A stretch of 64,000 bases of DNA from Thermodesulfobacteriota bacterium (GTDB lineage Bacteria; Desulfobacterota; UBA8473): NCBI GenBank assembly GCA_040757775.1, contig JBFLWQ010000001.1, forward strand, positions 58,917 through 122,916. The letters run 5' to 3'. Positions 1-55,169 of the stretch are shown in pieces. Under the pieces are notes generated by a model. The model saw only the letters and a program-made list of their open reading frames with translations. It was not told the DNA's origin and did no database searches. How positions within the stretch are numbered: position 1 is the first letter of the stretch; every line of letters begins with the position of its first letter. Both the position numbers and the translations under genes were made by a program.

Positions 1-985
1 TTACGCCGTTCTCCGTTGCAAAGTACTTTGCCATACTGGTCTCCAGGGTATTACGCCGTCCCTGGTCTTTCTGAACAGCACACCTGTAAGTCAGTAACCT
101 GGCGGCTTCAGTCCCCACAACCATGTCGGCTATTACCTCTTGGTTCATCTGAAAGTTACCGATAAGCTGCCCGAACTGTTCCCTCTCATTGCAGTATTTT
201 ACACAGGCATCTATACATGCCTGAGCAACTCCAACTGCCCCAGCAGCACAGCTCAGGCGAGTACAGTCGAGGTCAGCCATAACTATAGCAAAACCCTGGC
301 CTATTTTTCCCAGCAGGTTTTCTTTTGGAACCTTTACATCTTCCATAATAACCTCGCCTGTAGGACAGGCATGCCATCCAAACTTATCAGCAATTTCAGG
401 GGTTGAAATACCTGGAGACTTCATATCCATTACAAATGCAGACATGCCTTTGTGTTTAAGGCTCCTGTCTGTATAGGCGAACATCACGGCTACATCCGCA
501 ACCGTAGCATAGGTAATCCATGTCTTTGTGCCATTTAGAACAAAATGATCTCCTTTTTCCACAGCAGTTGTCTTCATTGATGCCACATCTGACCCTGCAT
601 TTGGTTCAGTAATGGCAAAGGCACCTAACCATTCGGCGCTCACCAATTTGGGAATATACTTCTTCTTCTGTTCCTCATTTCCAAACTTCAGTATTGTCAT
701 AGAAGTACCCATGGTTTGCATATTAAAAGGGGCTCTCAGGGAACCGCTGACTCTCGCAATCTCCTCTGTTACTATGGCATGCCCCAAAAATCCTACACCG
801 GAACCACCGTACTCCTCAGGAATAGGACAGCCCAAGAACCCCAACTCCCCCATCTTTCTTACAATCTCCCTCTGAAACCTGTGGGCTTTTTCATCAGCAT
901 CAACCACAGGTGCAATCTCTTTCTCTGCAAAGTCTCTTGCCAATTTCTGCATCGCCAACTGTTCTTCCGTAAGATCAAAATCCAT
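1..985 (-). CDS. acyl-CoA dehydrogenase (C-terminus outside the window)
   Basis: Reverse translation from ATG 983-985 gives MDFDLTEEQ... then ...FAITEPNAGSD...; strong RBS (aagggggggaaataATG). The ORF runs off the window at position 1, so it is absent from the track. Confidence 0.8.
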   Translation of the reverse strand, partial: MDFDLTEEQLAMQKLARDFAEKEIAPVVDADEKAHRFQREIVRKMGELGFLGCPIPEEYGGSGVGFLGHAIVTEEIARVSGSLRAPFNMQTMGTSMTILKFGNEEQKKKYIPKLVSAEWLGAFAITEPNAGSDVASMKTTAVEKGDHFVLNGTKTWITYATVADVAVMFAYTDRSLKHKGMSAFVMDMKSPGISTPEIADKFGWHACPTGEVIMEDVKVPKENLLGKIGQGFAIVMADLDCTRLSCAAGAVGVAQACIDACVKYCNEREQFGQLIGNFQMNQEVIADMVVGTEAARLLTYRCAVQKDQGRRNTLETSMAKYFATENGV

Positions 986-1170
986 TATTTCCCCCCCTTA
1001 AGAATTGTGTAACCGTTCACGGTTCTCAGTTTACAGTTTGTGTTCTAGTAACCGTTAACTGCAAACCGTAAACTGTGAACTCTTACTCTTACTGAATAAC
1101 CATTCATTTTAACGATTAACATACAGGTACTGTTTTGTCAAGGTTTTTAGTAGAATCATAGACAAAACTG

Positions 1171-2655
1171 TCATGCAGCAATTTGCCCTGTTAATCTATC
1201 AGAGAGTGCCATGAGGTCTTTAGACACTTCATTGTCTGTTTTTATCATGTGGAAAGGTATTGCATACTCCCTTCCTGAAAGTACAGCCGGCATTAACCGG
1301 GAGGTGCCAACCTTTAAATAGGAAGCAACATTGTAAGCCATTCTTTGGGCGAGCGTAATGTCCTGATTATTAGGTGCTGCACCCCTGATGTCTCTTGAGA
1401 AAGGCTCACACACCACTCTTTTATTGATCTTTATACCTGTCTGTTTCAGTTCCTCGTAAAAATATTCTGCTGCATTCATCTTTTCCCCTTTTGCTTCCCT
1501 TTCATCCCTCTTATAGCCCTCAGCTACAACAATTACGCACTCTTCTCTCTTATTAATTGCATCTGCTACCTTTTTATGGTCTATTTCGCTACTGGGAAGA
1601 ACAGCCAGGTGGGCACGTGCTCCAAGGCAAGAATTCAAAGCATGGAATCCGCCTCGGGCGCCCATCATCTCTACAATGTAAACTCTTTTATGGGTTCTTG
1701 CATCTGCCATATATGACCTTATCTTTTCAGAACCAACCTCTATCCCTGTATGCTGTCCTATACAATCGGTTCCGGATAAATCACTATCGATTGTTACTGG
1801 GATAAAAAATGTTTGAACAGAAGCCGGAATAAACTCGCACAGTGAGCACAACCCTTTAAGCGTACCATCGCCGCCAATGGCAATTATGCTTTTTGCCTTT
1901 TTCTTTTTGACTGTTATGGCAGCTTTTTCTGCCATCCCTTTATTTTTAAACTCATTGTATCGCTCACTCCTCAACATTGCACCCCTGGCTTCAGAAAGGG
2001 GAGCCGCATGGTAAACTCCAGTGACATGATCCAGTTTCTTGAAAAGAACAGGGTCATACACTAAGCGTATAAAATCATCGTCCCCTCCCAGTACCAATGA
2101 TTTAAAGCCTTCCCTGGCAGCATAGACTTCTCTTCCCTGATCTTCCAGATGTTGGGTTATAAAAGCAGTAACAGAATTATATCCCGGGGCACATCCGCCG
2201 TCCTGTATAAGCAAAACATCAAACTCAGAGAACATCTTTTTCCATTCAAAGGCTGACTTTTTAATCTTAGATATCACCTTCTGAGCTATCCTAAGCCTTA
2301 CTTGAAGCTCCCCGGCATCAACTGGCTTAGTTAAATAGTCATCTGCTCCTTCGTTCATAAATTTAATCATCTCCCCCTTCTCCTCTAAGGGGGCTGTTAC
2401 TATGAAATATATCCCGGAATACGGGGAATCAGGATCGTCTTTCAAACGTTTGCACAAGTCTCTTGCGTCTATTCCTGGCATTTTAAGAGAGCAGATAACA
2501 ATATCGGGGACTGCCTTTTCCGATATCTTTACTGCCTCTTTACTACTCTTTGCTTCCCATAATAAGTAATCCTTTTTTTTTCCAAGTTGATTCATATACA
2601 TTTTTCGTGTTTCTACATCATTTTCCACCACTAAAATGCGACACTTTTCTATCAT
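1171..2655 (-). CDS. receiver-like domain fused to a phosphofructokinase-family (PFK-A) domain
   Basis: N-terminal ~120 aa is CheY-like (VVENDV, conserved Lys in YLTKP), but the phospho-acceptor position reads ICSLKMPG, i.e. Ser in place of Asp. C-terminal ~370 aa carries PFK-A motifs: DGGCAPGYN, IAIGGDGTL, PVTIDSDLSGTD, EMMGARGG. Confidence 0.6.
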   Translation of the reverse strand: MIEKCRILVVENDVETRKMYMNQLGKKKDYLLWEAKSSKEAVKISEKAVPDIVICSLKMPGIDARDLCKRLKDDPDSPYSGIYFIVTAPLEEKGEMIKFMNEGADDYLTKPVDAGELQVRLRIAQKVISKIKKSAFEWKKMFSEFDVLLIQDGGCAPGYNSVTAFITQHLEDQGREVYAAREGFKSLVLGGDDDFIRLVYDPVLFKKLDHVTGVYHAAPLSEARGAMLRSERYNEFKNKGMAEKAAITVKKKKAKSIIAIGGDGTLKGLCSLCEFIPASVQTFFIPVTIDSDLSGTDCIGQHTGIEVGSEKIRSYMADARTHKRVYIVEMMGARGGFHALNSCLGARAHLAVLPSSEIDHKKVADAINKREECVIVVAEGYKRDEREAKGEKMNAAEYFYEELKQTGIKINKRVVCEPFSRDIRGAAPNNQDITLAQRMAYNVASYLKVGTSRLMPAVLSGREYAIPFHMIKTDNEVSKDLMALSDRLTGQIAA

Positions 2656-2947
2656 TTATATCCTCCTTTCAATAAATGTTCTGACAGGTAAGACACCTGT
2701 CCTACTGATTGATTTCTGTTTTTCATATTATGTTTCTGTTTTTCATAAAGCTTTTGAGATTACCATTTCAATCGTATTGTCAAAACCTCCCAAGAATCGG
2801 CACTGACTTCCTCTAATTTCCCCCTCCCCTCAATCCCCTCCCACCAAGGGAGGGGATATTTTAGTTGACTGGATAGTCTTTTTTTGTTATTCTTACAGCC
2901 CGTGTTAATTCATTGATAAATTATTTATATCCCTGAGGTAAAAAACA

Positions 2948-4969: not shown

Positions 4970-6409
4970 TCAACTGGTCAGGGCTTCAATCAATGCCTTT
5001 GCCTTATCCAGGGTTTCATCAAATTCCCCTTCCAGGGTAGAATCAGCAACTATCCCCCCGCCTACCTGGAAATAGACATCATCCCCCTTTATAAGGAAGG
5101 TACGAATAGCGATATTCAGGTCTATATGATTATTAAAGCCCAGATATCCGATAGACCCTGTATATACGCTTCTGGCAGTAGGTTCCAGCTCATCTATTAT
5201 CTCCATTGCCCTAATCTTCGGAGCACCTGTTATAGAACCTCCGGGGAAACATGCCTTTAACAAATCTATGTAATTATACCTGGGGAGCAACGTTCCTTCT
5301 ACTGTTGAAACCAGGTGAAAAACCGTAGCATAGGTCTCAGCAATAGCATGCTCCGTTACTCTGACTGAGCCATAGTCACATACCCGTCCCAGGTCATTTC
5401 GTTCCAAATCCACAATCATATTTAGCTCTGCCCTGTCTTTTTCGCTTTTTATAAGTTCTTCTTTCAACCTCTCGTCTTCACCATGGTCTTTTCCCCTTGG
5501 CCGGGTACCTTTTATCGGTCTTGTCTGGACCCTATCACCTTCTACTTTCAGGAACCTCTCCGGAGAAGAGCTGACTATTGTCACATCACTTAAGTTCAGG
5601 TAGCAGGCAAAAGGGGCTGGATTGACACTGCGGAGTTTCTTATACAATTGATAATGCCCCATGGGAAGCTTTGCATGAAACCTCTGAGACAGGTTCACCT
5701 GGTATATATCCCCGGCAAAGATATACTCTTTGGCCTTTTCTATAGCCTTTAAATAGTTTTCTCTCGTGAAGTTTGATTCAAGGGCCACTTTGGGTCTTGT
5801 TGCATTCATGGGATTTGATGGGTTTACCCCAGTATTTTTTAGCACAACCAATATCTCCTCTTCAAACTTTCTTATCCTGTCTTCAGTCGTCTTTTTTGTC
5901 ATAAAATCCTGGGTCCCATCAAAACGAGTCAAGCAGATATACCATCTGTTCTCCTGATGGTCATAGGCTAATATCCTATCATAGAAGCAGAAATAACAAT
6001 CTGGGAGGCTCAGGTCATCAACCACAGTTTTTGGTAACCTTTCAATAAAATGGCAGAGGTCATACGAAAAATAGCCAACCCCTCCACCGATAAAGGGAGG
6101 ATTGGCAAGGTCAGATTTAATCTTATAGCGCCTGATGATGCTATCAATGATATGGAATGGGTTACCCGTTATGGTATACTTATCGCCCCCAATGGCAATT
6201 TCTATCCTGTTACCTTTGCTCTTCAATATTAAAAAAGGGGCATACCCCATGAAGGAATATCTTCCAAGTTTGTACCTGTCCATGCCGCTGTCCAGAAAGA
6301 AACTGAAAGGCATTGAGTGAATCCTGTCGAAAACAGATTCAGGTGGTAAAAAGATGTTAAGCTCTCTTACTACAGGTCTCCCAATTTTTACCCCATTTAA
6401 AAAATTCAC
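4970..6409 (-). CDS. pabB: aminodeoxychorismate (or anthranilate) synthase component I
   Basis: 479 aa chorismate-binding enzyme (GGGVGYFSYD; PGGSITGAPK; ...SIGY). Operon context with a glutamine amidotransferase and a class IV lyase. Confidence 0.6.
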   Translation of the reverse strand: MNFLNGVKIGRPVVRELNIFLPPESVFDRIHSMPFSFFLDSGMDRYKLGRYSFMGYAPFLILKSKGNRIEIAIGGDKYTITGNPFHIIDSIIRRYKIKSDLANPPFIGGGVGYFSYDLCHFIERLPKTVVDDLSLPDCYFCFYDRILAYDHQENRWYICLTRFDGTQDFMTKKTTEDRIRKFEEEILVVLKNTGVNPSNPMNATRPKVALESNFTRENYLKAIEKAKEYIFAGDIYQVNLSQRFHAKLPMGHYQLYKKLRSVNPAPFACYLNLSDVTIVSSSPERFLKVEGDRVQTRPIKGTRPRGKDHGEDERLKEELIKSEKDRAELNMIVDLERNDLGRVCDYGSVRVTEHAIAETYATVFHLVSTVEGTLLPRYNYIDLLKACFPGGSITGAPKIRAMEIIDELEPTARSVYTGSIGYLGFNNHIDLNIAIRTFLIKGDDVYFQVGGGIVADSTLEGEFDETLDKAKALIEALTS

Positions 6410-6419
6410 AGATATGCCT

Positions 6420-7004
6420 CTAAAGGTCTATAAAGTTCCTGACAATCTTCTTCCCCTCACCGGTAAGAAACGATTCCGGATGAAACTGCACCCCTTCTAT
6501 TGTATAATCCCTGTGCCTTGTGCCCATTATAATGCTATCCTCTGTCCTTGCTGTAATCTCAAGACAGGGAGGGAATTCATCGTTTGACACAATAAGAGAA
6601 TGATACCTGGTGGCCTCAAAAGGATTTTCAACTCCCCTATAGACACCCTTTCCATCATGATAGATCATGGAGGTTTTGCCGTGCATAACTACATCTGCCC
6701 TTTTAACCTTACCTCCAAAAACTTCTCCTATGCATTGATGGCCCAGACAGACACCAAGTATACATTTCTTTTCTCCAAAATACCTGATGACGTCTTTCGA
6801 TATGCCAGCATCGTCCGGTGTACATGGACCAGGGGAGATGACTATCTTGTCCGGGTTTATATCTTCTATACCTTCCAGGGTTATCTTATCGTTCCTTATC
6901 ACCTTGAGTGTCACTCCAAGCTCACCGAAGTGCTGGACAAGGTTATAGGTAAAGGAATCGTAATTGTCTATCATCAGTATAAGCATCTTTTTCCCCTGGT
7001 GCAC
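6420..7004 (-). CDS. pabA: glutamine amidotransferase component II (PabA/TrpG type)
   Basis: 194 aa, MLILMIDNYDSFTYNLVQ, class-I GATase Cys in GVCLGHQ, and HPESF near the C-terminus. Confidence 0.7.
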   Translation of the reverse strand: MHQGKKMLILMIDNYDSFTYNLVQHFGELGVTLKVIRNDKITLEGIEDINPDKIVISPGPCTPDDAGISKDVIRYFGEKKCILGVCLGHQCIGEVFGGKVKRADVVMHGKTSMIYHDGKGVYRGVENPFEATRYHSLIVSNDEFPPCLEITARTEDSIIMGTRHRDYTIEGVQFHPESFLTGEGKKIVRNFIDL

Positions 7005-7125
7005 AACTATACCATTTCTTCTTAAGGTTTTCCAGTGGTTTTATAAAAAGAGCGCTAAAATACAAAAAAGGCTGGATTTTACCCAGTAATTGAGGTATAT
7101 CTATTTCTCGTAACTGGAGGATATT

Positions 7126-8493
7126 ATGATGCCCGTCAAACCAACCTATGAAGAGTTGGAGCAAAGAATAAAAGAATTAGAAACAGAAGCTATTAAACAT
7201 AAGAATATAGACAGGGCATTTAGGGAGAGTGAAGAACGGTTCCGAACCCTGTCGGAGGCTACTTTTGAAGGAATAGCAATCCATGAAGGGGGTGTACTTC
7301 TTACAGCAAATGAACAATACTTTCGGATGTTTGGGTATGATCCGCAAGAACTGATCGGGCAGCAGGTAATACCATTGACAGTGGCTCCTTTGTCCAGAGA
7401 ATTTATTGAAAAACAGATTAAATCTGGAGTCACAGGATCTCATGAGATTATGGGGCTTAAGAAAGACGGGACAGAGTTTCCGATAGAGACTAATGTGAAG
7501 TCTATGGAATATCAGGGACGTTTGGTCAGGGTAGTAGCAATCAGAAATATTTCTGAACGTAATCGAACCGATAAAGAACTGATAGAGGGCGAAGAGAGAT
7601 ATCGTACAATTTTAGATTCTAATCCTGATCCAGCGGTTATTTATGACATGGATGGCAAAGTAGTCTATCTTAATCCTGCATTTACAAGCGTGTTCGGGTG
7701 GACACAGGAGGAACGTCTGGGGAAAAAAATGGACAACTTTATCCCGGAGGAAGAATGGCCCATACTCCAAAAATTATTCGAAGAAGGCAATACCAATGCA
7801 TGTTTCCTGGATGTCGAGAGTAGAAGATATACCAAGGAAGGTAAAATTCTTGATGTCAGTATAAGCGGAGCATTTTTTAAGGATTCTAAAGGAATGCCGG
7901 CAGGAAGCTATGTTACTTTACGAAACATAACTGAAAATAAGAAGATGGAGAAGGCTTTGCGGGAAAGCGAGGAGAAATTTAGACGTCTTTCCTACATGGA
8001 TGATTTGACAGGTGTGGCAAATCGGCGTTATTTTGAAGAGATCTTTAATGTAGAGTGGGGACGTGGAGCACGTGACAGGTCTCCAATGTCACTGATCATG
8101 TGCGACATCGATTTTTTCAAGGCTTATAATGACAGACTGGGGCATCAAAGTGGTGATGATGCTCTGAAACAGGTAGCAGACTTATTGAGAAGTACGCTCC
8201 GCCGCCCCGGAGACATGGCGGCACGTTATGGCGGTGAGGAATTTGTGGTTGTGCTGCCGGATACGGATAAAAAGGGAGCTGCTCTTGTGGCAGAGCTATT
8301 GCGGGCTAATGTGGAGGTTTCAGGAATTGCACACCCTGACTCACCAATCTGTAAATCAGTAACCATCAGTATAGGGGTTGCCACTACAATCCCAGGTGGT
8401 AGGCATAAACCTGCTTCACTGATTTCAAAAGCAGACCATGCTATGTATCAGGCAAAAAAAGAAGGGCGTAACAGGGTTAAAATATCTGATTAA
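7126..8493 (+). CDS. PAS/PAC sensor diguanylate cyclase (GGDEF)
   Basis: 455 aa; two PAS-like segments followed by a GGDEF domain with active-site RYGGEEF. RBS ggagga lies upstream of the ATG pair at 7126/7129. Confidence 0.8.
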   Translation: MMPVKPTYEELEQRIKELETEAIKHKNIDRAFRESEERFRTLSEATFEGIAIHEGGVLLTANEQYFRMFGYDPQELIGQQVIPLTVAPLSREFIEKQIKSGVTGSHEIMGLKKDGTEFPIETNVKSMEYQGRLVRVVAIRNISERNRTDKELIEGEERYRTILDSNPDPAVIYDMDGKVVYLNPAFTSVFGWTQEERLGKKMDNFIPEEEWPILQKLFEEGNTNACFLDVESRRYTKEGKILDVSISGAFFKDSKGMPAGSYVTLRNITENKKMEKALRESEEKFRRLSYMDDLTGVANRRYFEEIFNVEWGRGARDRSPMSLIMCDIDFFKAYNDRLGHQSGDDALKQVADLLRSTLRRPGDMAARYGGEEFVVVLPDTDKKGAALVAELLRANVEVSGIAHPDSPICKSVTISIGVATTIPGGRHKPASLISKADHAMYQAKKEGRNRVKISD

Positions 8494-8634: not shown

Positions 8635-8711
8635 GCCCCCGTAGCTCAGGTGGATAGAGCAAGGGATTCCTAATCCCTGTGCCGCGTGTTCGAGTCACGC
8701 CGGGGGCACCA
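8635..8711 (+). tRNA. tRNA-Arg (anticodon CCT), 77 nt with encoded CCA
   Basis: Cloverleaf read by hand: acceptor GCCCCCG/CGGGGGC, D-arm GCUC/GAGC, anticodon stem AGGGA/UCCCU with loop UUCCUAA (anticodon CCU), T-arm GCGUG-UUCGAGU-CACGC, discriminator A, then CCA. Confidence 0.85.
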
Positions 8712-21088: not shown

Positions 21089-21122
21089 CCAAAGGACTTG
21101 TTGTCCTTTGGCTTTTCTGTTT
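21089..21122 (+). terminator. rho-independent terminator-like hairpin
   Basis: CCAAAGGAC-ttgtt-GTCCTTTGG (perfect 9-bp stem) followed by CTTTTCTGTTT. The track's TTG start for the portal (21108) lies inside this hairpin. Confidence 0.45.
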
Positions 21123-21137
21123 GAAAGGTACTCAGGC

Positions 21138-24100
21138 ATGTGGTTGATAGATAGAATTACTGATCTTCTGACGAAGGCCAAGTACGATCCGTCCGGAGTT
21201 GATGGTCCTGGAACTACGAGAACTGGTAATGAGCAGAACGGATGGTATTATAATCTGATAAAGCTCGAGGAGACACGAAAGGCACGATACAAAGATTATG
21301 ACACGATGGATGATGAGTTCCCGGAAATATCCTGTGTTACAGGAGACACAATAGTTCACTGTTTAGATGGAGATTTTACGATTAAGGAATTGACAGAGAA
21401 CAAGAAAGATGAAATGTTCTTGGTTTACAGTTGCGATGGGAATAGAATAGTTTTTGATGAAGCGTATGCTCCACGACTCTCAGGTAGAAAAGTAAAAGTT
21501 ATTCGCGTAAGGTACAGAAGCAACAACCGATGGACCCATGAACTACGAGTTACTGGCGACCATAAATTTATGATGAGGGACGGTAGCATGAAAATGGCTG
21601 GAAAGTTAAGGTCAGGAGATAGCCTAATGCCGTTCAACGCTCAGTATGTAAATGATAGGCGGGTCATTAAAGATTTGGATGGTAGGAAGGTCTATGCGTC
21701 CCATCTGGTATTTGAGCAATACGCCAATAGAGCAGTTGATCTTGGCAAAGTGATTCACCACATTGATGGGAACCGGAGAAACGACAATCCACTAAATTTG
21801 CATGAATTATCGCTTGAAGAACATTGCCGTAAGCATAGCATGGGGAATCAGCATACATTGGGAATGATATGGAACGATGATACTGAACGAGTGGAAAAGC
21901 ATAGAAAGCGGATGCTTGGGAATAAGCATAAAAAGGGGAAGGCCAATAGTATAGAAACACGAATGAAGATGAGGAAAGCTCATGCTGAAAGACGACTGCT
22001 AGGGCTAAAACGAAACAGAGAATATGGAAAGCCATGGAACAAGATACAAATTACGCCGGAAGATTTGGTAAATGCTGTTGAAAGAACGAATGATTATAGA
22101 GAAGCAAGCGAACTGTTAGGAATTTCAGTTCCTGTGTTTTTCAGGCGTGTGAAGGATTTTGGTTTAAGGGGAGCTGTTGATTATAATCATGTGGTAGTAG
22201 GTATCGAAGATGGAGGGTTTGAGGATGTTTATGATTTGACGACACGGCGTACTCATAAGTTTGCTGCGAATCACCTAATTATATCGAATTCGAGTATCGA
22301 TATATATTCAGACAATGCGACACAGTCGGTTGATGGAACGCATGAGTCGTTTTGGATAGAATCCGAAGACCAGAAAGTAAAGGATGTTCTGACCAGGATT
22401 AACGAGGAGACTGGACTGCAAGATTCGATTTGGTCTATTGGGCGAAATCTGGTTAAGTATGGAGATGATTTTGAGGAAATAGTATTAAACTCAAGTATGT
22501 TCGTAGTAGATATAAAAGGATTGCCCTGTGAGCAGATGTACAGGAATGAGGATGAATACGGCAGGTTGCTAGAGGATGGTGCGTTCACGCAGAGAGACGT
22601 AAGCACAAACAAGGAGCTTGCAGAGTTTAAGAGCTGGCAGATCGTCCATTTCAGAAATGTGGTGAAGAGAGGGACGAAATACGGGAGGAGTTTACTGTAT
22701 CCTGCAAGAAAGGTATTCAAACAGTTACAGATGATGGAAGACGGTATGGTGATTGCGAGGCTGACCAGGAGCAACATGAGGTACAAGTGGAAAATCGATG
22801 TCGGCAATATGTCTGCAAATGAGGCACGTACATTCCTGAGAGATGTCAAGATGGAGCTCAGAAAGAAGCGCGTTATTGACCCTGCTACGGGCAAGTTTAA
22901 ACTGACCGATAATCCATTAAAAGATGAGGAAGATTTTTTTGTGGCTGTAAGGGATGGATCTCCGGCTGACGTTGATGCCATACAAGGTTCTGCAACGCTT
23001 GGTACTATTGGTGATGTAGAGTATTTTCAGAATAAGCTGTTTTCGATGCTGAAGGTACCGAAGGCGTATCTTGGATTGGAGAGAGATGTGAATGCTAAAT
23101 GTTTGGCTGGCGATACCCCGATATGTCTTGCAAATGGGAAAGATATGCCGATTCGTGAATTAGTAAAGCTTTATAGTAATGGGCAAAGGTTTTACGTGTA
23201 TTCATGCCGTAGAGATGGTGAGATAGTAATAGCAGAAGCACATTCCCCAAGGATAACAAGAAGAAATGCCGAAATGGTAAAAGTGACGCTCGATAGTGGG
23301 GTGAGCTTCAGGTGTACACCTGACCATCCGATAATGTTGCGCTCAGGTTCTTTTTGTCAGGCGAAAGATATTAAGAATGGCACAAGCATTATGCCTTTGT
23401 ATAGAAAGATCTCCGAGAAACCTGAGAATAGTATTAGCGGATACGAGTTACATAGAAATCCACGAACGGGCCAATGGAGATATACGCATAGGCTTGTTGG
23501 AAGACATCTTCCCAGGCCGATCGGTGAAAAGCGTTGGGTCATGCACCATGTTGATTTTGATAAGAGAAATAACTCGCCAGACAACCTTGTTCTCATGACG
23601 TGGGACGATCATGTAAAGCTACACATGGCTTTTGTAGCGTTGTTGCATACCGAAGAAGTTAAGAAGCGTAGCAGAGAGGGCGTTTTGAAATCTGCAAAAT
23701 TCAAAAAAAGACTGTTGAGCATGAATAGCAGCCTTTGGAAGAGAGCGAAGTCTAGCAAGACATTGAGACGATTGTATGCTGAAGGCGTTATGAATGTAAA
23801 GGGTGTCCTAAATCCAAGATACAGAAAGGATGTCACGGTTGAAAGTATAGCGAATGCAGCTCGAGAAGCAAAATGTTCATCTGCAAAAGAGATACAAGAA
23901 AAAACTGGAATTAATTATTCGTTGTTAAGAAGACGACTTGACAAGTTGGGACTAAGTTATCAAGAGTTTGCAGATAAAGTTTTGGAAGCGGGGTATAGAA
24001 AAACTGGATGGCATCGCCCTGACTTAAGTCTTGAAAAAATAGGTGAAGCCATCGCTTCCTTCGCAACAGTAAAAGAGGCAGCAGAAAAATTAGGTGTTAA

Positions 24101-24752
24101 CCGGCCTGACCTTTACCAGATATGTAAAAGAAGAGGGACGACTGTTCAGGAATTGCGGGCATCCAACCATAAAGTAGTGAGCGTTGAACCCGACGGCGTG
24201 GATGCCGAAACGTACGACTTAACTGTAGATAACTATCATACGTTTGCAATAGGGTGTGGTATCTTTGTTCATAATAGCACCCTGACCGTACAGGATGTAC
24301 AATTCGCAAGGACTGTCCGTAGGTATCAGAAGATATTAACGAATCAGATAAGATCGATATACAATCTAGGGCTAATCTTGCAATCATTGGATCTTGCGAA
24401 GTCTCCGTATTATGTTTTCTTTCCACCTATAAATACTGTTGATGAGCTTGCTAGGTGGCAAACCGAAAAGGTAAAGGCTGAGATAGCAAAGATTTACGGG
24501 ATTGATATTAACTGCGTGTCTGAGGAATTTATTCTGTCCTATTATCTTGGACTGACTGACAATGAGATTAAGGATGTTTCAGGACAGACGAAACCGGTAC
24601 GGCAGGGCAAGGAGCAGCAGGTAGTAGAAACGATCACGACTTCCAACATCGAACCGCATGAGCTACTAGAGCTTGGAAATCTACTGGAAGCTCTGAGAGA
24701 CCTTGTTGAAATTGAACTGGAGAAGAAGGAACAAGAACGATGGGAGCATTAG
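21138..24752 (+). CDS. portal protein interrupted by two HNH-type inteins
   Basis: First ATG after the hairpin. Removing the two inteins leaves an extein of about 500 aa, typical for a portal, in the position after the terminase. Confidence 0.55.
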   Translation: MWLIDRITDLLTKAKYDPSGVDGPGTTRTGNEQNGWYYNLIKLEETRKARYKDYDTMDDEFPEISCVTGDTIVHCLDGDFTIKELTENKKDEMFLVYSCDGNRIVFDEAYAPRLSGRKVKVIRVRYRSNNRWTHELRVTGDHKFMMRDGSMKMAGKLRSGDSLMPFNAQYVNDRRVIKDLDGRKVYASHLVFEQYANRAVDLGKVIHHIDGNRRNDNPLNLHELSLEEHCRKHSMGNQHTLGMIWNDDTERVEKHRKRMLGNKHKKGKANSIETRMKMRKAHAERRLLGLKRNREYGKPWNKIQITPEDLVNAVERTNDYREASELLGISVPVFFRRVKDFGLRGAVDYNHVVVGIEDGGFEDVYDLTTRRTHKFAANHLIISNSSIDIYSDNATQSVDGTHESFWIESEDQKVKDVLTRINEETGLQDSIWSIGRNLVKYGDDFEEIVLNSSMFVVDIKGLPCEQMYRNEDEYGRLLEDGAFTQRDVSTNKELAEFKSWQIVHFRNVVKRGTKYGRSLLYPARKVFKQLQMMEDGMVIARLTRSNMRYKWKIDVGNMSANEARTFLRDVKMELRKKRVIDPATGKFKLTDNPLKDEEDFFVAVRDGSPADVDAIQGSATLGTIGDVEYFQNKLFSMLKVPKAYLGLERDVNAKCLAGDTPICLANGKDMPIRELVKLYSNGQRFYVYSCRRDGEIVIAEAHSPRITRRNAEMVKVTLDSGVSFRCTPDHPIMLRSGSFCQAKDIKNGTSIMPLYRKISEKPENSISGYELHRNPRTGQWRYTHRLVGRHLPRPIGEKRWVMHHVDFDKRNNSPDNLVLMTWDDHVKLHMAFVALLHTEEVKKRSREGVLKSAKFKKRLLSMNSSLWKRAKSSKTLRRLYAEGVMNVKGVLNPRYRKDVTVESIANAAREAKCSSAKEIQEKTGINYSLLRRRLDKLGLSYQEFADKVLEAGYRKTGWHRPDLSLEKIGEAIASFATVKEAAEKLGVNRPDLYQICKRRGTTVQELRASNHKVVSVEPDGVDAETYDLTVDNYHTFAIGCGIFVHNSTLTVQDVQFARTVRRYQKILTNQIRSIYNLGLILQSLDLAKSPYYVFFPPINTVDELARWQTEKVKAEIAKIYGIDINCVSEEFILSYYLGLTDNEIKDVSGQTKPVRQGKEQQVVETITTSNIEPHELLELGNLLEALRDLVEIELEKKEQERWEH
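21333..22289 (+). mobile_element. intein 1 (319 aa) with HNH homing-endonuclease domain
   Basis: Begins ...PEIS|CVTGDTIVHCLDG (block A); block B TGDHKF; HNH core HHIDGNRRNDNPLNLHEL...EEHCRKH; ends VYDLT...THKFAANHLIISN|S (blocks F/G, Ser+1). Confidence 0.5.
23100..24275 (+). mobile_element. intein 2 (392 aa) with HNH homing-endonuclease domain
   Basis: Begins ...NAK|CLAGDTPICLANG; HNH core HHVDFDKRNNSPDNLVLMTWDDHVKLH; ends TYDLTVDNYHTFAIGCGIFVHN|S (canonical HN + Ser+1). Confidence 0.6.
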
Positions 24753-27153: not shown

Positions 27154-28446
27154 ATGGAATGGCTAATTGAGACTTTGCCCGCTCGCCTCGAGATCGTTGA
27201 AGAGGCGACTGAGGCAAACGGTGGAAGGATGAAGGTTCGTGGCAAGTTCCAGGAAGCCGACGTGATAAATGGCAATGGTAGGGTTTATCCACGAAAGATA
27301 TTGAAAAGGGAAGTGGAAAGGTTGAAGCAGGACGTAGCTGAGCGGAGAGCGTTTGGAGAAGGAGACCACCCAAAAGATGGGAGGTCCACGATTTCTGGAA
27401 CGGTAAGTATCCTGACAGATATTGACATGCCTGACAATGAGGTATTCGGAGAGGCTATAATCCTGAATACCGCAAAGGGCAAAGACCTTCAGGAGATAAT
27501 TCGAGCCGGTGGTCGAGTTGGTGTGTCTAGCAGGGGCAGTGGAACAACAAAGAGAGGTAGATGGAATGGAGAAATGGCCGATGAGGTGGGGGAAGACTTT
27601 AGACTGAAAACGTTTGATTTTGTGATAGGCGCAAGCGTCAAAGGTGCTGAGGTGGGTTCATACACAGAACAGCAGCTTGATGTAATAAACATTCTCTCTG
27701 ATAGCCAGCGTGAGTTGGGAGAGGAGCAAAAAGGGGAAAAGGAGGAGGTTATGAAACTAGGAGAATTGAAGGAAAAGTATCCAGAGCTGGTGAAGCAACT
27801 GGATGAGGAGGTCACTGCTAGAGTGACTGATGAAATCACCAAGAAGGTAACCGAGGAAGTCACGAAAAGACTGTCCGATGACTTTGATAAGAAAGTCACC
27901 GAGGCAATTGATCAGCAAAGACAGGAGATTGTGAAACAGGTACGAGTGGAAATAGAGGGGTCGCCTGAGTTCAAAGCTGGTAATGACGTGCTTCGCAAGA
28001 TAATCGAATCGGTGAAACCACTACTCGGAGAAAACAAAGCAGATGATACCGATGATGAGAATAAGAAGATTATCGAGGGCTTGAAGGCATCCATTGAGGA
28101 GCAGGAAAAGAAGATTGAGAAGTTAGATAACCAGGTTAAGTCGCTGACTGGCCAGCTCTCTGAGGAAAAGTCTAAGGTTGAGGTAAAGGCATACATCGAG
28201 GAGAAGACCAAGGGCGAGGTTTTACGAAATAGCCTGATGGAGCGACTTGGTGACTGCAAGACAAAGGAAGAGGTTGATGAGCGGTTGCCCAAGGAAAAGG
28301 AAGCTATCAAGAAGGTAATCGATGAGTCCAAGCGTCCCCCAGGACATGGTAAAGTGCTGGATGAAGATAAGGAAGAGAAAGGGCTTACGGAAAACCAGAA
28401 AAGGCAACGTAGGGCTGCCGGTATCAAGGAGAAGTCCGACAAGTAG
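27154..28446 (+). CDS. prohead protease-like domain fused to a coiled-coil scaffolding domain
   Basis: N-terminal ~130 aa resemble the HK97-type (S78/U35) prohead protease (VRGKFQEADVINGNGRVYP; GEGDHPKDG; VGVSSRGSG). The C-terminal ~300 aa are E/K-rich heptad coiled coil. Lies upstream of the capsid gene. Confidence 0.45.
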   Translation: MEWLIETLPARLEIVEEATEANGGRMKVRGKFQEADVINGNGRVYPRKILKREVERLKQDVAERRAFGEGDHPKDGRSTISGTVSILTDIDMPDNEVFGEAIILNTAKGKDLQEIIRAGGRVGVSSRGSGTTKRGRWNGEMADEVGEDFRLKTFDFVIGASVKGAEVGSYTEQQLDVINILSDSQRELGEEQKGEKEEVMKLGELKEKYPELVKQLDEEVTARVTDEITKKVTEEVTKRLSDDFDKKVTEAIDQQRQEIVKQVRVEIEGSPEFKAGNDVLRKIIESVKPLLGENKADDTDDENKKIIEGLKASIEEQEKKIEKLDNQVKSLTGQLSEEKSKVEVKAYIEEKTKGEVLRNSLMERLGDCKTKEEVDERLPKEKEAIKKVIDESKRPPGHGKVLDEDKEEKGLTENQKRQRRAAGIKEKSDK

Positions 28447-28488
28447 TAACGTTTGAACGAGAAGAATATAAATAAGGAGGTTCAAATC

Positions 28489-29592
28489 ATGAAAGAGAGG
28501 AAACGATTATCACTGCCAGGTGTTGCACCTGCGTGGTTGAATGAGGATGAGGAAAGAAGGGAAAGATGGGCGTATCTGACAGAAGATATAAAGGATGATC
28601 TGCTAAGACGACAGGTCGAGACGATGTTGGATAACGAAGCATGGTACATGGATTATCTTGAAGAGACATCGCAGACCTCTAACGTAGGTACGTTTACTAC
28701 GTTTGCGTTCCCGCTCGTCAGAAGGATTTATCCAAAGCTGATCGCAACAGAGCTGGTTTCGGTTCAACCCATGACCCAGCCTACAGGCAAAATCTTCTAC
28801 CTGGATTTCAAGTACAATACCGGAGGTCAGAGAATCGACACGAATCCAGATAAGACCTATGCCAATGCAACCGAGGGCGGTGCAGTAAAGGAGATTAACT
28901 TTGATATCACCTCTGTGACTGTTGAGGCAGGAGAAAAGAAGCTCAAGGCAAAATGGACTATCGAGGCTCAGCAAGACTTGATGGCGTACCATGGCCTTGA
29001 TGCTGAAACTGAGTTAATGGGCGTCTGTGGAGATGAAATTACAAGAGAGATTGACAGAGACATCATAGACGATGTTGTTGCTCAGGCTTCTGCTGGTAAC
29101 GTCAACTGGTCAAAGACGATTCCGACAACTGCGCCATGGAACGTATTGGATCCAAAGGTCTACAAGGAAACCTTGTACGATGCGATCATCGATGCGAACA
29201 ACATGATTTTCAAGAAGAGGTATAGGAATGCTTCCTGGATTGTGGCCGACCCCGATACCTGTACCAGATTTGAGAAGCTCGAGAAATTCAAGTTGTTCGA
29301 AGGGGCTGATGACGCCACAATGAATATGGGAGTGATCAGATTCGGTACCCTTGCTAACAAGTATCGAGTCTATAAAGATCCGTGGTTCGCTGCCGACAAG
29401 ATACTGTTAGGTTACAAGGGGCCTACGTGGTTGGAGACAGGGTACGTCTATGCGCCGTACATTCCGTTGTACGTGACGCCTTTGATAATCGACCCTAATG
29501 ATTTCATACCAAGACGAGGGATGATGAGTCGGTTTGCCAAGAAGGTAGTTAGTGGCGACTTCTTCGCAACGGTAACGCTGACCGGGTCATAA
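28489..29592 (+). CDS. major capsid protein (putative)
   Basis: ATG 28489 with RBS aaggagg (the track's TTG at 28453 rejected). About 367 aa, following the scaffold/protease. Confidence 0.5.
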   Translation: MKERKRLSLPGVAPAWLNEDEERRERWAYLTEDIKDDLLRRQVETMLDNEAWYMDYLEETSQTSNVGTFTTFAFPLVRRIYPKLIATELVSVQPMTQPTGKIFYLDFKYNTGGQRIDTNPDKTYANATEGGAVKEINFDITSVTVEAGEKKLKAKWTIEAQQDLMAYHGLDAETELMGVCGDEITREIDRDIIDDVVAQASAGNVNWSKTIPTTAPWNVLDPKVYKETLYDAIIDANNMIFKKRYRNASWIVADPDTCTRFEKLEKFKLFEGADDATMNMGVIRFGTLANKYRVYKDPWFAADKILLGYKGPTWLETGYVYAPYIPLYVTPLIIDPNDFIPRRGMMSRFAKKVVSGDFFATVTLTGS

Positions 29593-36523: not shown

Positions 36524-36798
36524 CACGGTTCTATGGATGGACACACTCTCAGATAATGTCATTAACTCCAGGGCAGTATCGGTTTTACCTGTCTGGTATG
36601 GACAGACTTAATGCTAGTGAACGCCTTGAGGAAATTGTTGTTCATTCAATTCCATATCTTAGTTCTGGAAGTAGAGCTGGTATTGTTCAAAGGTATCGAA
36701 ATGAACTTATGAACGATCTATGCGAACCATACGAACCATGTCTCGATGAAACTGCTTTTTTAAATATAAAAAGACGACTGCCTAGAGGACGTGCATAA
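36458..36798 (+). CDS. tail assembly chaperone -1 frameshift extension (GT product, 36113..36466 joined to 36466..36798)
   Basis: Slippery A_AAA_AAA at 36460-36466 (within the A9 run 36458-36466). The -1 frame is open from the slip site through the 36556 ORF to 36798, where ATGA couples to the tape-measure start. Confidence 0.5.
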
Positions 36799-39700
36799 TG
36801 TTTGACGCTGGTAGTTTAGTTTCTAAGCTCACGCTTGATGCGACTGAATATTTCAAAAAGCTTGGTGAAGCCTTGTCCAAGTTTGAAGGACTTGGTACGT
36901 CTATCGGCAAAGAAATGGATAAAATCCAAAAGGATGGACAGATTGCAGCCGATAAGATGGCTAGCTCCTGGAATAAGGCACTGAAGGACATTGAAAAGAA
37001 TTCCGATATGTTCAAGAGCATCGGAATGAAGATAAGTGCTATCGCTGCGGCTGGTACTGCTGGACTAACAGCGACTGTTATGGCGTCGTCGAAATTCGAG
37101 GCGTCCCTTGCTAATGTGTCTACTCTGGTTAATACGAGTGAAGTCAGCATGGCAAAGCTAAAGCAAGGTATCATGGATTTGCCTCCTGAACTTGGGCGGG
37201 CAACCATGTTGAGTGAAGGCTTGTATCAGGCGTTGTCTGCTGGAGTAAAGCCTGCTGAGGCGATAGGTTTTGTCACTGCTGCGGCTAAGGCGGCAAAGGC
37301 AGGTTTGACTGATGCGTTTACCGCTGTCGATGCTGGAACAACGATCCTGAACGCGTTTGGAATGCAGACTTCCGACGCTGGCATAGCTTTTGATCAGATG
37401 TTCAAGACTGTTGAGCTTGGCAAGGTCACATTTGAAGGTTTGGCAGTAACGGTTGGAAATGTAGCACCTACGTTTGCCACTGCAAAGCTGTCCACCGAAG
37501 AGATGTTCGCCGCCATAGCGACCTTGACTGCTGGCGGTATTGACGCTGCACGTGCTACTACGTCATTGAACAGTGTAGTTTTAAATATAATCAGGCCACA
37601 GGAAAATGCTATTGAAGTTGCACGACAGTACGGGATTGATTTGAGCCTGGCTGGACTACAGGCGAAGGGGTTCAGTGGATTTTTGAAAGAGCTTCAGGAT
37701 AAAGTTGGAGGTAATACTGAGGCACTCGTTAAGATTATACCCAACATCGAAGCCTTACGAGCTATCCTGCCGTTGGTTGGAACACAGGCTAATATGTTTG
37801 GAGAAGCCCTGGACGCTATCGGAGCGAAATCAAAAGGTGCTATTGACAAAGCTTTCTTAAAACAGATGGACACAACTAAGGAGTCATTTGCTGCTCTTGG
37901 AGTTAGTGTTGAAAAGTTTGCGATTGCTATTGGAGACAAGCTTGCACCTGTCATAAGGGTTGTAACAGAGCGTGTAACGGATATGGTTAAATGGTTCAAT
38001 GACTTGAACGATGGATGGAAAACTGCCATCGGTCTCTCGGTAGCTCTTGGTACTGGACTGGCTGCTATTACTGGTCCTGCACTTCTGCTGATAGGATACC
38101 TTCCACGAATAGCGGAAGGTATTGCGATGATAGGTACTTTTATTGCTGCGCACCCGATCGGGCTGGCGATCACTGGGATTGCTGCAGCGATAGGTGCGCT
38201 TACTATTGCGTTTTTGTCATATAAAGCAGCCCTAGCCGATGTGACCCCATTTCAGGAATATTCACATAATCTTGCCGTTGTAGATAAAGAGCTAGAAAGA
38301 TTGAGGGGACGAGTTGAGACCCTAGAAAAACAACCATGGATTTTCGGACCAACGAAGGGCATGATTCAGGAGACACTGGATCGGATTAAAGAACTGGAAG
38401 AGAAAAGGCAACAGATCATACGTGACTTTGCCAAGATAGGAGACAAAGAAGAGGAGGATAGGAAGAAGGCAAAAGAGGAAAAAGAGAAGCTGGAAAAGGA
38501 GAAAAAGAGAATAGAGGAGCAAGAGGAAAGGAATAGACGAAAGCAATTAAAGTCGCAAGCAGATGATGAGGCAAGAAAGGAACGAGTGAAGCTCAACCGT
38601 GAACTAGAGTTGTCTCTTATGAACGAGAAGGAAAAAGCCATTGCCATAATGAATGAAAAGGTTGAGGCGTTCAGGAAGGCTGGTCTGGATGAGACTAAGA
38701 TTCAGGGATATATTGATCAGGAAAAGCTTGAAATTGAGCAAAAGTATACAGGGTTGACACAAAAAGAGTACGATAAGCTCGTGGAACACTGGAGGCAGGC
38801 TAATAAGTACAAGGCAGAACTGGCTGGGAAGGCCCTTGAAGAAGAACTCAGAGAGACTGATAATGCTATTAACCAGCAGGAAGCCATGTATCGTGATTTG
38901 TTCTACAAGTCAGGTCAATATGCTAAGGAATATACATACTTTAGAGAGCTTCAAATCGATATTGAAACCGATGACTTGATAGAGTCCCTGACAAAGAATG
39001 TTCGAAGCATAGAAGAAGCTAATGAAATCATCTTGCTTATAGAACAGCAAGCGGTAGAAAAGAAGAGACAACTCCATCTAGAAACCAATAAGGCAATGCT
39101 TCAGTATTCAAATGATTTTGTTATGGGGTGGAGTATAGGACTGGATGAAATGCTAGCAAAGCAATACACCTGGGGACAGGCGGGCTATGATGTGTTCAAA
39201 GCCTTTACGGATGGTGCAAAGACTATGTTCTCCAGTATGTTTATGGACTTTTTCACGAGCGATCTCAAGACGTTTGGGGATTACTGGGAGTCGTTTTGGA
39301 ACTCTATGCAAAGAAAGTTCTCGGAAATTTTGTCACAGATGCTGGTGGAATGGATGATGACGCAAGGAAGGATGCAATATGCCACAGGCGGCGGATATAC
39401 ACAGACTGGAGCAGGAGGACAGGTCGTACAGACCAGCTATGGGATGTTGTCAGGGGCAGCATTGGCTGGGATTCCTGCAGGTTCCGAGGTTGCGTTCGTG
39501 CCTCTATCCGAATTGTCTCAGGCAGAAATCACGGCGGCCGTGCAGCAGGGGGCGAACATTACCACCACATCAGAGGGTGTCCAGGGGCTTGCGGTGACAA
39601 AAGTTGCGGAGGCTGGGTTCTGGCAATACGCCGGGACGGCGGGTATTAGCTATATGGGGTCTAATCTTGTTGCTTCTCTTTTGGGAACGGAAAAGGGAAG

Positions 39701-40193
39701 TGCTGAAGACCTGGCAACAAGAGCTTTGTCAGGAGCAGCAACAGGGGCTGCTTGGGGCACATGGGTAATGCCTGGTGTAGGTACAGGCATAGGTGCAATC
39801 ATAGGAGGGATTACAGGACTGCTCGGTGGTTTGTTCCATGAGGGTGGCATCATCAAGGCTCATGGAGGGCTGAAGATAGGAAGTGCTATCTCCGATATGA
39901 TGTCATCTGTTTTTAAGCCAAGAGAAAAGCTAGTCCTTACTGAAGTTGGCGAAGGGATCCTACCTGTTCCAGTCATGGATAGACTTGGTGACATAGGTTT
40001 TGAGAGCCTACGGAGTGGGAACTTTGAGATTAAATCCGAACGTAGCTCTGTATCAGGAACTGGAAACCATTTCTATATTGATAAGTTGGTAGCGATTGAA
40101 GGTGACTACCACGTGTTTGATGATAGGTTTATTGAAAATCTGACCAGAAAGGTAAGAACTGAATTACAAAATCTTGCAGAACTGAGGCACTAA
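36798..40193 (+). CDS. tail tape-measure protein
   Basis: 1131 aa; N-terminal TP901-type region, long EK-rich coiled coil, Gly-rich hydrophobic C-terminal segments. Confidence 0.8.
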   Translation: MFDAGSLVSKLTLDATEYFKKLGEALSKFEGLGTSIGKEMDKIQKDGQIAADKMASSWNKALKDIEKNSDMFKSIGMKISAIAAAGTAGLTATVMASSKFEASLANVSTLVNTSEVSMAKLKQGIMDLPPELGRATMLSEGLYQALSAGVKPAEAIGFVTAAAKAAKAGLTDAFTAVDAGTTILNAFGMQTSDAGIAFDQMFKTVELGKVTFEGLAVTVGNVAPTFATAKLSTEEMFAAIATLTAGGIDAARATTSLNSVVLNIIRPQENAIEVARQYGIDLSLAGLQAKGFSGFLKELQDKVGGNTEALVKIIPNIEALRAILPLVGTQANMFGEALDAIGAKSKGAIDKAFLKQMDTTKESFAALGVSVEKFAIAIGDKLAPVIRVVTERVTDMVKWFNDLNDGWKTAIGLSVALGTGLAAITGPALLLIGYLPRIAEGIAMIGTFIAAHPIGLAITGIAAAIGALTIAFLSYKAALADVTPFQEYSHNLAVVDKELERLRGRVETLEKQPWIFGPTKGMIQETLDRIKELEEKRQQIIRDFAKIGDKEEEDRKKAKEEKEKLEKEKKRIEEQEERNRRKQLKSQADDEARKERVKLNRELELSLMNEKEKAIAIMNEKVEAFRKAGLDETKIQGYIDQEKLEIEQKYTGLTQKEYDKLVEHWRQANKYKAELAGKALEEELRETDNAINQQEAMYRDLFYKSGQYAKEYTYFRELQIDIETDDLIESLTKNVRSIEEANEIILLIEQQAVEKKRQLHLETNKAMLQYSNDFVMGWSIGLDEMLAKQYTWGQAGYDVFKAFTDGAKTMFSSMFMDFFTSDLKTFGDYWESFWNSMQRKFSEILSQMLVEWMMTQGRMQYATGGGYTQTGAGGQVVQTSYGMLSGAALAGIPAGSEVAFVPLSELSQAEITAAVQQGANITTTSEGVQGLAVTKVAEAGFWQYAGTAGISYMGSNLVASLLGTEKGSAEDLATRALSGAATGAAWGTWVMPGVGTGIGAIIGGITGLLGGLFHEGGIIKAHGGLKIGSAISDMMSSVFKPREKLVLTEVGEGILPVPVMDRLGDIGFESLRSGNFEIKSERSSVSGTGNHFYIDKLVAIEGDYHVFDDRFIENLTRKVRTELQNLAELRH

Positions 40194-55138: not shown

Positions 55139-55169
55139 AAAAAAAGAGGCTGTAGGTTTGTTGGAGAAG

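Follow-up and report, generated by a model that had tools for sequence, protein, structure and literature searches.

The 64,000-nucleotide stretch of Thermodesulfobacteriota DNA analysed here (contig JBFLWQ010000001.1, the window) encodes at positions 1171-2655, on the minus strand, a 494-residue protein. In it, an N-terminal receiver domain (REC) that lacks the phospho-acceptor aspartate is joined to a C-terminal domain of the phosphofructokinase (PFK) family. The protein is not a peculiarity of this genome: it belongs to a family conserved in more than 100 metagenome-assembled genomes (MAGs) of Desulfobacterales and Desulfatiglandales. In the query lineage it is probably a phosphorylation-independent orphan regulator whose output is a sugar-phosphate kinase. 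The more interesting result lies at the level of the family, a PFK-like clade of its own in which the sensors are modular and the phospho-Asp has been lost repeatedly. We put forward, as a tentative idea that is possible though short of likely, that this clade is an undescribed branch of PFK-A. In such a branch effector-site allostery would have been exchanged for modular N-terminal signalling domains (REC or a cyclic-nucleotide-binding (cNMP-binding) domain), a sugar-phosphate kinase step (glycolytic PFK or a new reaction) would be under two-component or cyclic-nucleotide control, and REC would act mainly in oligomerisation or as a scaffold, with phosphorylation dispensable.

Domain layout of the REC-PFK-like protein

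The gene is a single open reading frame (ORF) with a ribosome-binding site, GGAGG, lying 7 nt 5′ of the ATG. Pfam recognises Response_reg (PF00072) at residues 7-121 (E = 9e-16, 58.5 bits against a cut-off of 30.2) and PFK (PF00365) at residues 147-445 (E = 7e-49, 167 bits against a cut-off of 30.9). Read from the N-terminus, the order is REC, conserved helix, PFK-family domain.

1171-2655, minus strand: whole ORF, 494 aa, stop codon at 1171-1173 (ORF list; Pfam; end-to-end alignment with homologues of 61-92% identity)
2662-2666, minus strand: GGAGG ribosome-binding site (read from the sequence)
2281-2643, minus strand: REC domain, residues 5-125, Asp-less (pseudo-receiver) (Pfam PF00072; best match in the Protein Data Bank (PDB), the PleD receiver; AlphaFold2 model)
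2218-2280, minus strand: amphipathic linker, residues 126-146, extending REC α5 (helix 114-141) (AlphaFold2 model; conserved hydrophobic positions)
1189-2217, minus strand: divergent PFK-A family (PFK-like) kinase domain, residues 147-489 (PF00365; Foldseek)

An AlphaFold2 model of the query built on 60 homologues (mean predicted local distance difference test, pLDDT, 76.5) gives the receiver a (βα)5 pattern at a pLDDT of about 80-90. The last REC helix runs unbroken to residue 141 (helix 114-141, pLDDT 82-92) and is followed by the PFK-type α/β domain. Hydrophobic linker positions 127, 131, 136, 141, 142 and 145 are conserved among 164 sequences. A coiled coil was considered for residues 117-145 of the query, which have 4-3 hydrophobic spacing, but was rejected, as positions 134, 135 and 138 are non-hydrophobic in the family; the linker appears to be a conserved amphipathic helix and no more. 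Foldseek against the PDB places the C-terminal domain among bacterial ATP-PFKs and some pyrophosphate (PPi)-PFKs (20-26% identity, probability 1.0), the top matches being bacterial ATP-PFKs (21-25% identity). The global superposition is poor (template modelling score 0.3-0.45, root-mean-square deviation 11-13 Å) because of the extra domain and low-confidence loops, and the likeness holds at the level of the fold only.

The phospho-acceptor aspartate of the receiver is replaced by serine

The initial annotation of this gene placed a Ser where the phospho-acceptor Asp is expected, and two alignment methods agree on that position. HMMER pairs PDIVICSLKMPGID of the query with PDIILLDVMMPGMD of PleD, which sets Ser56 opposite PleD Asp53. 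MAFFT sets Ser56 opposite Asp57 of E. coli CheY, Asp54 of B. subtilis Spo0F and Asp53 of E. coli PhoB. Asp occupies this column in the family profile. The closest PDB match of the query REC is the PleD receiver, and the family profile matches the first PleD receiver at E = 1e-28.

2617-2625, minus strand: Glu11-Asn12-Asp13, degenerate acidic pair (MAFFT with CheY, Spo0F and PhoB; family consensus D-D-D)
2488-2490, minus strand: Ser56 codon TCT, phospho-acceptor position (alignment to PleD Asp53 and CheY Asp57)
2326-2328, minus strand: Lys110 of the K-P motif, pocket lysine, kept (HMMER and MAFFT alignments)

Ser56 is not a sequencing error, because its codon, TCT, differs from GAY at no fewer than two positions (three if Y = C, two if Y = T) and because Ser recurs across several independent MAGs; with the two agreeing alignments this excludes misalignment as well. 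As the acceptor Asp is missing, the query receiver cannot undergo classical phosphorylation, in keeping with the earlier claim. It has the defining traits of an aspartate-less receiver (ALR) or pseudo-receiver (PsR), being recognised by PF00072 with the phospho-Asp absent.

Of the surrounding pocket, said to be kept together with the conserved Lys, only half is in place. By MAFFT, Glu11 pairs with CheY Asp12, whereas Asn12 pairs with CheY Asp13, the Mg-binding second acid, so that the query reads Glu11-Asn12-Asp13 where the REC family consensus at the acidic positions is D-D-D. Lys110, the equivalent of CheY Lys109, is present and followed by Pro111. Thr87 and Tyr107 are also present by MAFFT, which pairs Thr87 with CheY Thr87, but HMMER sets PleD Thr83 opposite Ala88. 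The family has a conserved Ser at REC position 88, where the query has Ala88. Residues specific to the family's receivers and kept in the query are Cys68, Lys72, Tyr83, Gly103, Asp105, Asp106, Pro111, Glu116 and Leu117. A Cys, Cys55, directly precedes the acceptor position in most receivers of the family.

The Asp has been lost repeatedly within a conserved family

REC+PFK proteins of about 490 aa (61-92% identity) make up all of the best 120 matches in a 5.8-billion-protein collection. Their source is mostly Thermodesulfobacteriota MAGs, and their label, where they have any, is '6-phosphofructokinase'. A scan of GTDB species representatives revealed relatives in 125 genomes. In that scan the REC-fused form is found in Desulfobacterales and Desulfatiglandales, in one Eisenbacteria MAG and in one Theseobacter MAG, all uncultured.

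The acceptor position is Asp in 130 of 164 REC-bearing members and another residue (Ser, Asn, Gly, His, Ala, Pro, Gln, Glu or Cys) in the other 34. As Asp is kept in most members, the pseudo-receiver state is a derived feature of lineages. Fitch parsimony on a neighbour-joining tree of the 164 sequences requires about 16 changes at position 56, a rough count from a tree without bootstrap. The query's own clade (at least 72% identity) is Asp-less except for P0006, and its residue at position 56 is Ser, Pro, His or Gln. Lys110 is kept in 127/130 Asp-bearing and 16/34 Asp-less members, and the second acid in 96/130 and 13/34, respectively. Judged by these counts, loss of the Asp is accompanied by decay of the remaining phosphorylation pocket.

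The initial annotation also suggested that Ser56 might itself be phosphorylated, and recommended a search for Ser/Thr kinase partners. A Hanks-type Ser/Thr kinase acting on Ser56 would mimic phospho-Asp and switch the PFK-like domain. The Ser sits exactly at the acceptor position, it recurs in the seven closest Ser-bearing relatives (P0001, P0003, L006, L007, L008, L011 and L059), and Thr87, Tyr107 and Lys110 are at hand in the query. The same clade, however, has Pro (P0002, 88% identical), His (P0004, P0007, L009, L010) or Gln (P0005) at this position, Asn stands where the Mg-binding second acid is expected, and Thr replaces the pocket Lys in L006, L007, L011 and L059, which are 90-92% identical to the query, as Arg does in L009 and L010. 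Because the position varies and the Lys is often lost within the clade, the Ser is no conserved acceptor. The kinase search likewise came up empty: no protein kinase domain turned up in the window's host segment, nor in 126 neighbours at related loci. We regard phosphorylation of Ser56 as very unlikely.

A receiver that has lost its chemistry could also be decaying and functionless by itself, whether because the domain is about to disappear or because the regulator has become a pseudogene. In the query clade, several of the five conserved receiver residues have gone or are free of constraint, and REC evolves faster than the PFK-like domain (dN/dS within the Asp-less clade 0.15-0.31 against 0.05-0.12). 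These REC values are nevertheless far below 1 and similar to those of Asp-bearing pairs (0.05-0.22), and the pseudo-receiver is therefore still under purifying selection. The reading frame is moreover intact in all relatives, the family-specific REC residues are kept in the query, and the AlphaFold2 receiver fold is confident, all of which makes decay extremely unlikely. Since the phosphorylation residues are lost and purifying selection persists, the query receiver is probably a phosphorylation-independent module.

The PFK-like domain keeps catalytic residues and departs from canonical PFKs

Within the protein, conservation is highest in the PFK-like domain, where dozens of positions are invariant across 60 sequences. 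Canonical residues are given below in Bacillus/E. coli numbering; for effector-site and donor-specificity residues the numbering of the PFK literature is combined with HMMER alignments.

2182-2199, minus strand: G153-G154-C155-A-P-G, the GGD-x-PG nucleotide loop, Asp12 (Bacillus numbering) replaced by Cys (HMMER against 3pfk)
1864-1875, minus strand: G261-G262-D263-G264, GGDG, Asp103 equivalent (alignment to PFKs)
1780-1794, minus strand: T288-I-D290-S-D292, TIDxD, equivalents of Thr125, Asp127 and Asp129 (alignment to PFKs)
1654-1665, minus strand: M331-G332-A333-R334, MGR site, Arg171 replaced by Ala (gapless HMMER alignment to S. aureus and Bacillus PFKs)
1381-1398, minus strand: S420-R421-D-I-R424-G, the G-H249-x-Q-R252-G sugar-6-phosphate loop (HMMER against 5xoe and 1zxx)

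Thr288, Asp290, Asp292, Arg232 and Glu379, equivalent to Thr125, Asp127, Asp129, Arg72 and Glu222, are invariant in 121 sequences, and Gly104, Arg162 and Arg252 are likewise invariant in the family. Asp290 (Asp127 equivalent) is the presumed catalytic base. Among the sugar-6-phosphate ligands, Arg324 (Arg162), Arg413 (Arg243) and Arg424 (Arg252) are kept, the Arg413 position being Lys or Arg across the family, and His249 is replaced by an invariant Arg421. On the adenine side Tyr233 stands for Phe73 and Lys237 for Arg77, and the ATP-type Gly104 is kept as Gly264.

The domain had been described as a complete PFK-A core with GGDG, TIDxD and MGR. Two of the three motifs stand: GGDG at residues 261-264, which is found in the query clade (111/121 members have GGNG, Asp103 being replaced by Asn), and TIDSD at 288-292, TIDxD being invariant (121/121). 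The third does not. The query reads M-G-A-R, with Ala333 falling opposite Arg171 of the Bacillus and S. aureus PFKs without a gap in HMMER alignments; Ala is found there in 120/121 members, and Arg334 is not conserved, being mostly Ser or Asn in the family. Cys155 takes the place of Asp12 in 121/121 sequences. Because of Arg171 to Ala and the other family-wide departures (Asp12 to Cys, Gly124 to Val, Asn128 to Ser, His249 to Arg), and with scores far under the NCBIfam cut-offs, the core is not canonically complete. Two new invariant residues, Arg229 and Glu231, adjoin the Arg72 equivalent, and Arg229 might compensate for the missing Arg171. We summarise the domain by a signature (C155, R229, R232, N/D263, V287, T288, D290, S291, D292, R324, A333, E379, K/R413, R421, R424) that is common to the REC-fused and cNMP-fused forms.

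A coupling of Asp loss with a return of GGDG was considered, as GGDG occurs in 10/34 Asp-less and 7/130 Asp-bearing members. It was rejected because nearly all of the excess stems from the query's own clade and is thus phylogenetic. Six cysteines of the PFK-like domain (155, 273, 298, 343, 373 and 416) are invariant or nearly so; Cys155 sits in the nucleotide loop and Cys416 beside the sugar-phosphate loop.

PPi-PFKs are marked by Asp at 104 and Lys at 124 (GGDD, PKTID). Both determinants are missing from the query, which has Gly264 and Val287, and the NCBIfam PPi-PFK models score far under their cut-offs. By its residues the domain is neither PPi-type nor canonical ATP-type. The classical ADP/phosphoenolpyruvate (PEP) effector site is gone. 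HMMER alignments reveal Ala164 for Arg21, Gln168 for Arg25, Met316 for Arg154 and His349 for Glu187; effector loop 208-212 is deleted along with Arg211, His215 is replaced by Glu372, and Lys213 alone is matched by a basic residue, Arg370. Across the family these replacements vary little or not at all. Relative to bacterial PfkA, the PFK-like domain has an insertion of about 17 residues at roughly 191-215.

These departures raise the question of whether the domain is a 6-phosphofructokinase at all. It could phosphorylate a different sugar phosphate, draw on a different phosphoryl donor, or bind ligands as a pseudo-enzyme; the architecture proposed above would still hold, a glycolytic role would not, and the database name '6-phosphofructokinase' would be wrong. 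Such a reading draws on the scores under all NCBIfam PFK cut-offs, on the invariant departures at Arg171, His249, Gly124, Asn128 and Asp12 with Asn for Asp103 in 111/121 members, and on the new residues Arg229 and Glu231 beside the Arg72 equivalent; the clade is set apart from canonical PFKs in an exhaustive search (below), and the gene has no glycolytic context. It has to contend with the invariance of the Asp127, Thr125, Asp129, Arg72, Arg162, Glu222 and Arg252 equivalents, and because of these a non-catalytic binder is hard to reconcile with the data. The ATP-type Gly104 and adenine-side Tyr233 and Lys237 are also kept, PEP carboxykinase adjoins the gene in four related loci, and to our knowledge the PFK-A family is almost monofunctional. 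We therefore consider it rather unlikely, though far from negligible, that the domain is something other than a 6-phosphofructokinase.

Two unrelated input domains precede the PFK-like domain

An exhaustive HMMER search of 1.84 billion representatives identified only 33 clusters (50% identity) at E ≤ 1e-30, a clade clearly apart from canonical PFKs whose members are REC-fused, cNMP-binding-fused or stand-alone. Pfam confirms an N-terminal cyclic-nucleotide-binding domain in P0124, P0126, P0129 and P0132. The stand-alone members are about 375 aa long (35-38% identity); one of them, P0133 (L086, 6001-7119), directly adjoins an NAD-dependent epimerase/NmrA-like gene, an uninformative context. P0146 (873 aa) joins the PFK-like domain to DUF547 and to a VTT domain of the membrane.

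In the GTDB scan, PFK-like domains without REC (52-61% identity) carry the same active-site signature in MAGs of Chlorobiales, Calditrichota, Leptospiraceae and Bacteroidota. These REC-less loci are L068-L085 (matches at about 6001-7100), the Chlorobiales among them being Chloroherpetonaceae, Thermochlorobacter and a Prosthecochloris MAG. Their N-termini are putatively cNMP-binding, by likeness to the Pfam-confirmed forms. The REC-fused and Pfam-confirmed cNMP-fused proteins share the junction [FY]xx[IM]DVLL[IV]QDGGC. Some cNMP-type members (P0125, P0126, P0129 and L075) retain Arg171. The chief reason to see a regulated catalytic output in the PFK-like domain is that two unrelated domains of input type occupy the same place in front of it and that it has lost its own allosteric site.

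The gene is an orphan without a glycolytic context

The exact window protein is without a match in public assemblies, and gene context was compared through relatives. No histidine kinase appears among the 25 most frequent Pfam families of 126 immediate neighbours at about 38 diverse loci, nor in the other contexts inspected; the REC-PFK-like gene is an orphan with no adjacent histidine kinase. No glycolytic operon surrounds it, as judged by ORF clustering at 80 loci and the Pfam census of the 126 neighbours. The gene for proC (pyrroline-5-carboxylate reductase) lies directly upstream in 22/79 loci, and that for ATP-dependent PEP carboxykinase directly downstream in four (L018, L019, L021 and L032). 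Both adjacencies are lineage-level synteny and a weak functional hint. Alpha/beta hydrolase and FTHFS genes recur among the neighbours at the approximately 38 loci.

Within the window the downstream neighbour is an acyl-CoA dehydrogenase gene, which also lies beside L002, L003 and close relatives.

1-985, minus strand: 5′ part of the acyl-CoA dehydrogenase gene, running past the left end of the window (six-frame translation)

Upstream and divergent are a UbiA prenyltransferase gene, then pabC, pabB, pabA and a PAS-GGDEF gene. The synteny of the window is limited to close relatives.

Several further observations concern this neighbourhood. In the intergenic region that separates the REC-PFK stop codon from the start of the acyl-CoA dehydrogenase gene, window positions 1009-1086 are crowded with repeated and inverted motifs of the type AACCGT(T/A)AAC(T)G, with inverted-repeat arms of at most 30 nt. 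These may be operators bound by a regulator of that gene. A strong terminator-like hairpin (2833-2857, plus strand; 7 G-C pairs in a stem of 10 bp, then a T-rich tail) occurs within the divergent REC-PFK/UbiA intergenic region, about 90 nt 5′ of the UbiA start. The PAS-PAS-GGDEF diguanylate cyclase gene (7126-8493, plus strand) marks the edge of the host segment; the syntenic contig of the 89% relative has a REC-guanylate/adenylate cyclase gene in this neighbourhood instead.

Beyond this edge lies a tRNA-Arg(CCT) gene at 8635-8711, followed by a T4-like region that looks like a prophage or phage (8635-62400, plus strand). It encodes a prohead protease S77 (27154-28446), a Gp23-type major capsid protein (28453-29592), a tape-measure protein (36798-40193) and a DNA polymerase III beta clamp (57967-59043), and also a ParB_N protein, glycosyltransferases and DUF4942. 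The T4 Gp20-like portal protein (21108-24752, plus strand; 1214 aa) has an N-terminal HNH_3 endonuclease domain, and an apparent intein (Intein_splicing, residues 673-1056) interrupts it. At 53021-55138 and 55158-56672 (both plus strand), a bpMoxR/AAA_5 ATPase that contains a Hom_end homing-endonuclease segment at residues 321-387, an intein-like insertion, is followed by a VWA protein and DUF6744. The bpMoxR and VWA genes resemble a MoxR-vWA system within the phage region.

A proposed route of control and the evidence that weighs against it

In the proposed scheme, control would have shifted from the effector site to the N-terminal module, REC in Desulfobacterales and Desulfatiglandales or a cNMP-binding domain in other phyla. 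Acting through the α5-linker helix, this module would determine the oligomeric state or the conformation of the kinase domain. The PFK sugar-phosphate site is completed across the subunit interface by Arg162 and Arg243 of the neighbouring subunit, and the REC or cNMP domain could govern the assembly or conformation of that interface. In most members an unlinked histidine kinase would phosphorylate Asp56 and control would be phosphorylation-dependent. The query lineage would have abandoned this chemistry (Asp56 replaced by Ser, second acid Asn, Lys110 unconstrained), leaving the receiver as a phosphorylation-independent structural, dimerisation or partner-binding module and the enzyme constitutively set or cued otherwise. 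As a default guess, the substrate is fructose 6-phosphate.

Several results weigh against this scheme. The PFK-like domain scores below every NCBIfam PFK cut-off (NF002872, 142.5 against 253; TIGR02483, 122.7 against 430.55; TIGR02482, 115.6 against 371.35). Ala for Arg171, Arg for His249 and Val for Gly124, with Asn for the Mg-ATP ligand Asp103 in 92% of the family, mean that its activity or substrate may differ from that of 6-PFK. The neighbourhood offers almost no functional clue beyond lineage-level synteny, and the number of Asp losses is approximate, as noted above. The AlphaFold2 model is of moderate quality, with pLDDT below 50 in active-site loops 289-304 and 420-433, and the proposed regulatory route therefore gains no support from structure.

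If the PFK-like domain is active, signalling would act directly and post-translationally on an enzyme of central carbon metabolism, unlike the usual transcriptional route, and would do so in abundant, uncultured lineages of sulfate reducers. How pseudo-receivers work without phosphorylation is an open question (PMC12632262). The family is a natural experiment on it, in which approximately 80% of receivers are phosphorylatable, approximately 20% are Asp-less and the assayable output domain is nearly invariant. The automatic name '6-phosphofructokinase' is unjustified by the curated thresholds and calls for caution in metabolic reconstructions of these MAGs.

Comparison with known systems

Literature searches found no published study of a REC-PFK, pseudo-receiver-PFK or cNMP-PFK fusion. 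The initial annotation called the architecture unusual, and in this sense it is, although it is conserved in more than 100 species-level genomes and already visible in databases under its automatic name. Pseudo-receivers and response regulators with enzymatic outputs are well known, and replacement of Asp by Ser is an ordinary ALR feature.

In published ALR statistics (PMC4395418), 15% of Asp replacements are to Ser, and the residues that tend to survive are the first acid, the Lys and the Tyr, whereas the second acid has mostly gone. The pattern in the present family fits these figures. The query resembles the ALR/PsR proteins FrzS, RitR, ChxR and HP1043 (PMC4395418, PMC12632262) in being recognised by PF00072 without a phospho-Asp, in its Ser replacement, in keeping the first acid, Lys and Tyr while losing the second acid, and in being an orphan. 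ALRs, too, arise repeatedly inside families of typical regulators. The query differs in its PFK-family output and in that the Asp-less state can be traced within one tight family (about 16 changes in 164 sequences). Neither of the two reviews (PMC4395418, PMC12632262) mentions a PFK output, and PFK is absent from the supplementary tables of the ALR census (PMC4395418) examined here.

With PleD-type REC-GGDEF proteins, the query shares an N-terminal REC ahead of an enzyme domain, a REC closest to the first PleD receiver, and a long α5-linker helix. PleD is activated through phosphorylation-driven dimerisation. The query, by contrast, has a single REC without Asp phosphorylation, and its output has a metabolic-kinase fold instead of being a second-messenger enzyme.

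The bacterial ATP-PFKs (B. stearothermophilus 3PFK/4PFK, E. coli 1PFK and S. aureus 5XOE) share with the query their fold, GGDG, TIDxD, the equivalents of Arg72, Arg162, Glu222, Arg243 and Arg252, and Gly104. The query is 21-25% identical to them and differs in its active-site changes, in the loss of effector residues Arg21, Arg25, Arg154, Glu187 and Arg211, and in carrying an N-terminal signalling domain. In the former Deltaproteobacteria, the PFK of Myxococcus xanthus is reportedly activated by the Ser/Thr kinase Pkn4, a case of PFK control by protein phosphorylation. That enzyme is said to be canonical and stand-alone, phosphorylated on a Thr of the catalytic domain and without a receiver domain.

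Closest to the query are the uncharacterised cNMP-PFK-like proteins of Chlorobiales, Calditrichota, Leptospiraceae and others, which share the PFK-like domain (52-61% identical), its signature and the junction, and differ in that their sensor is a cyclic-nucleotide-binding domain instead of REC.

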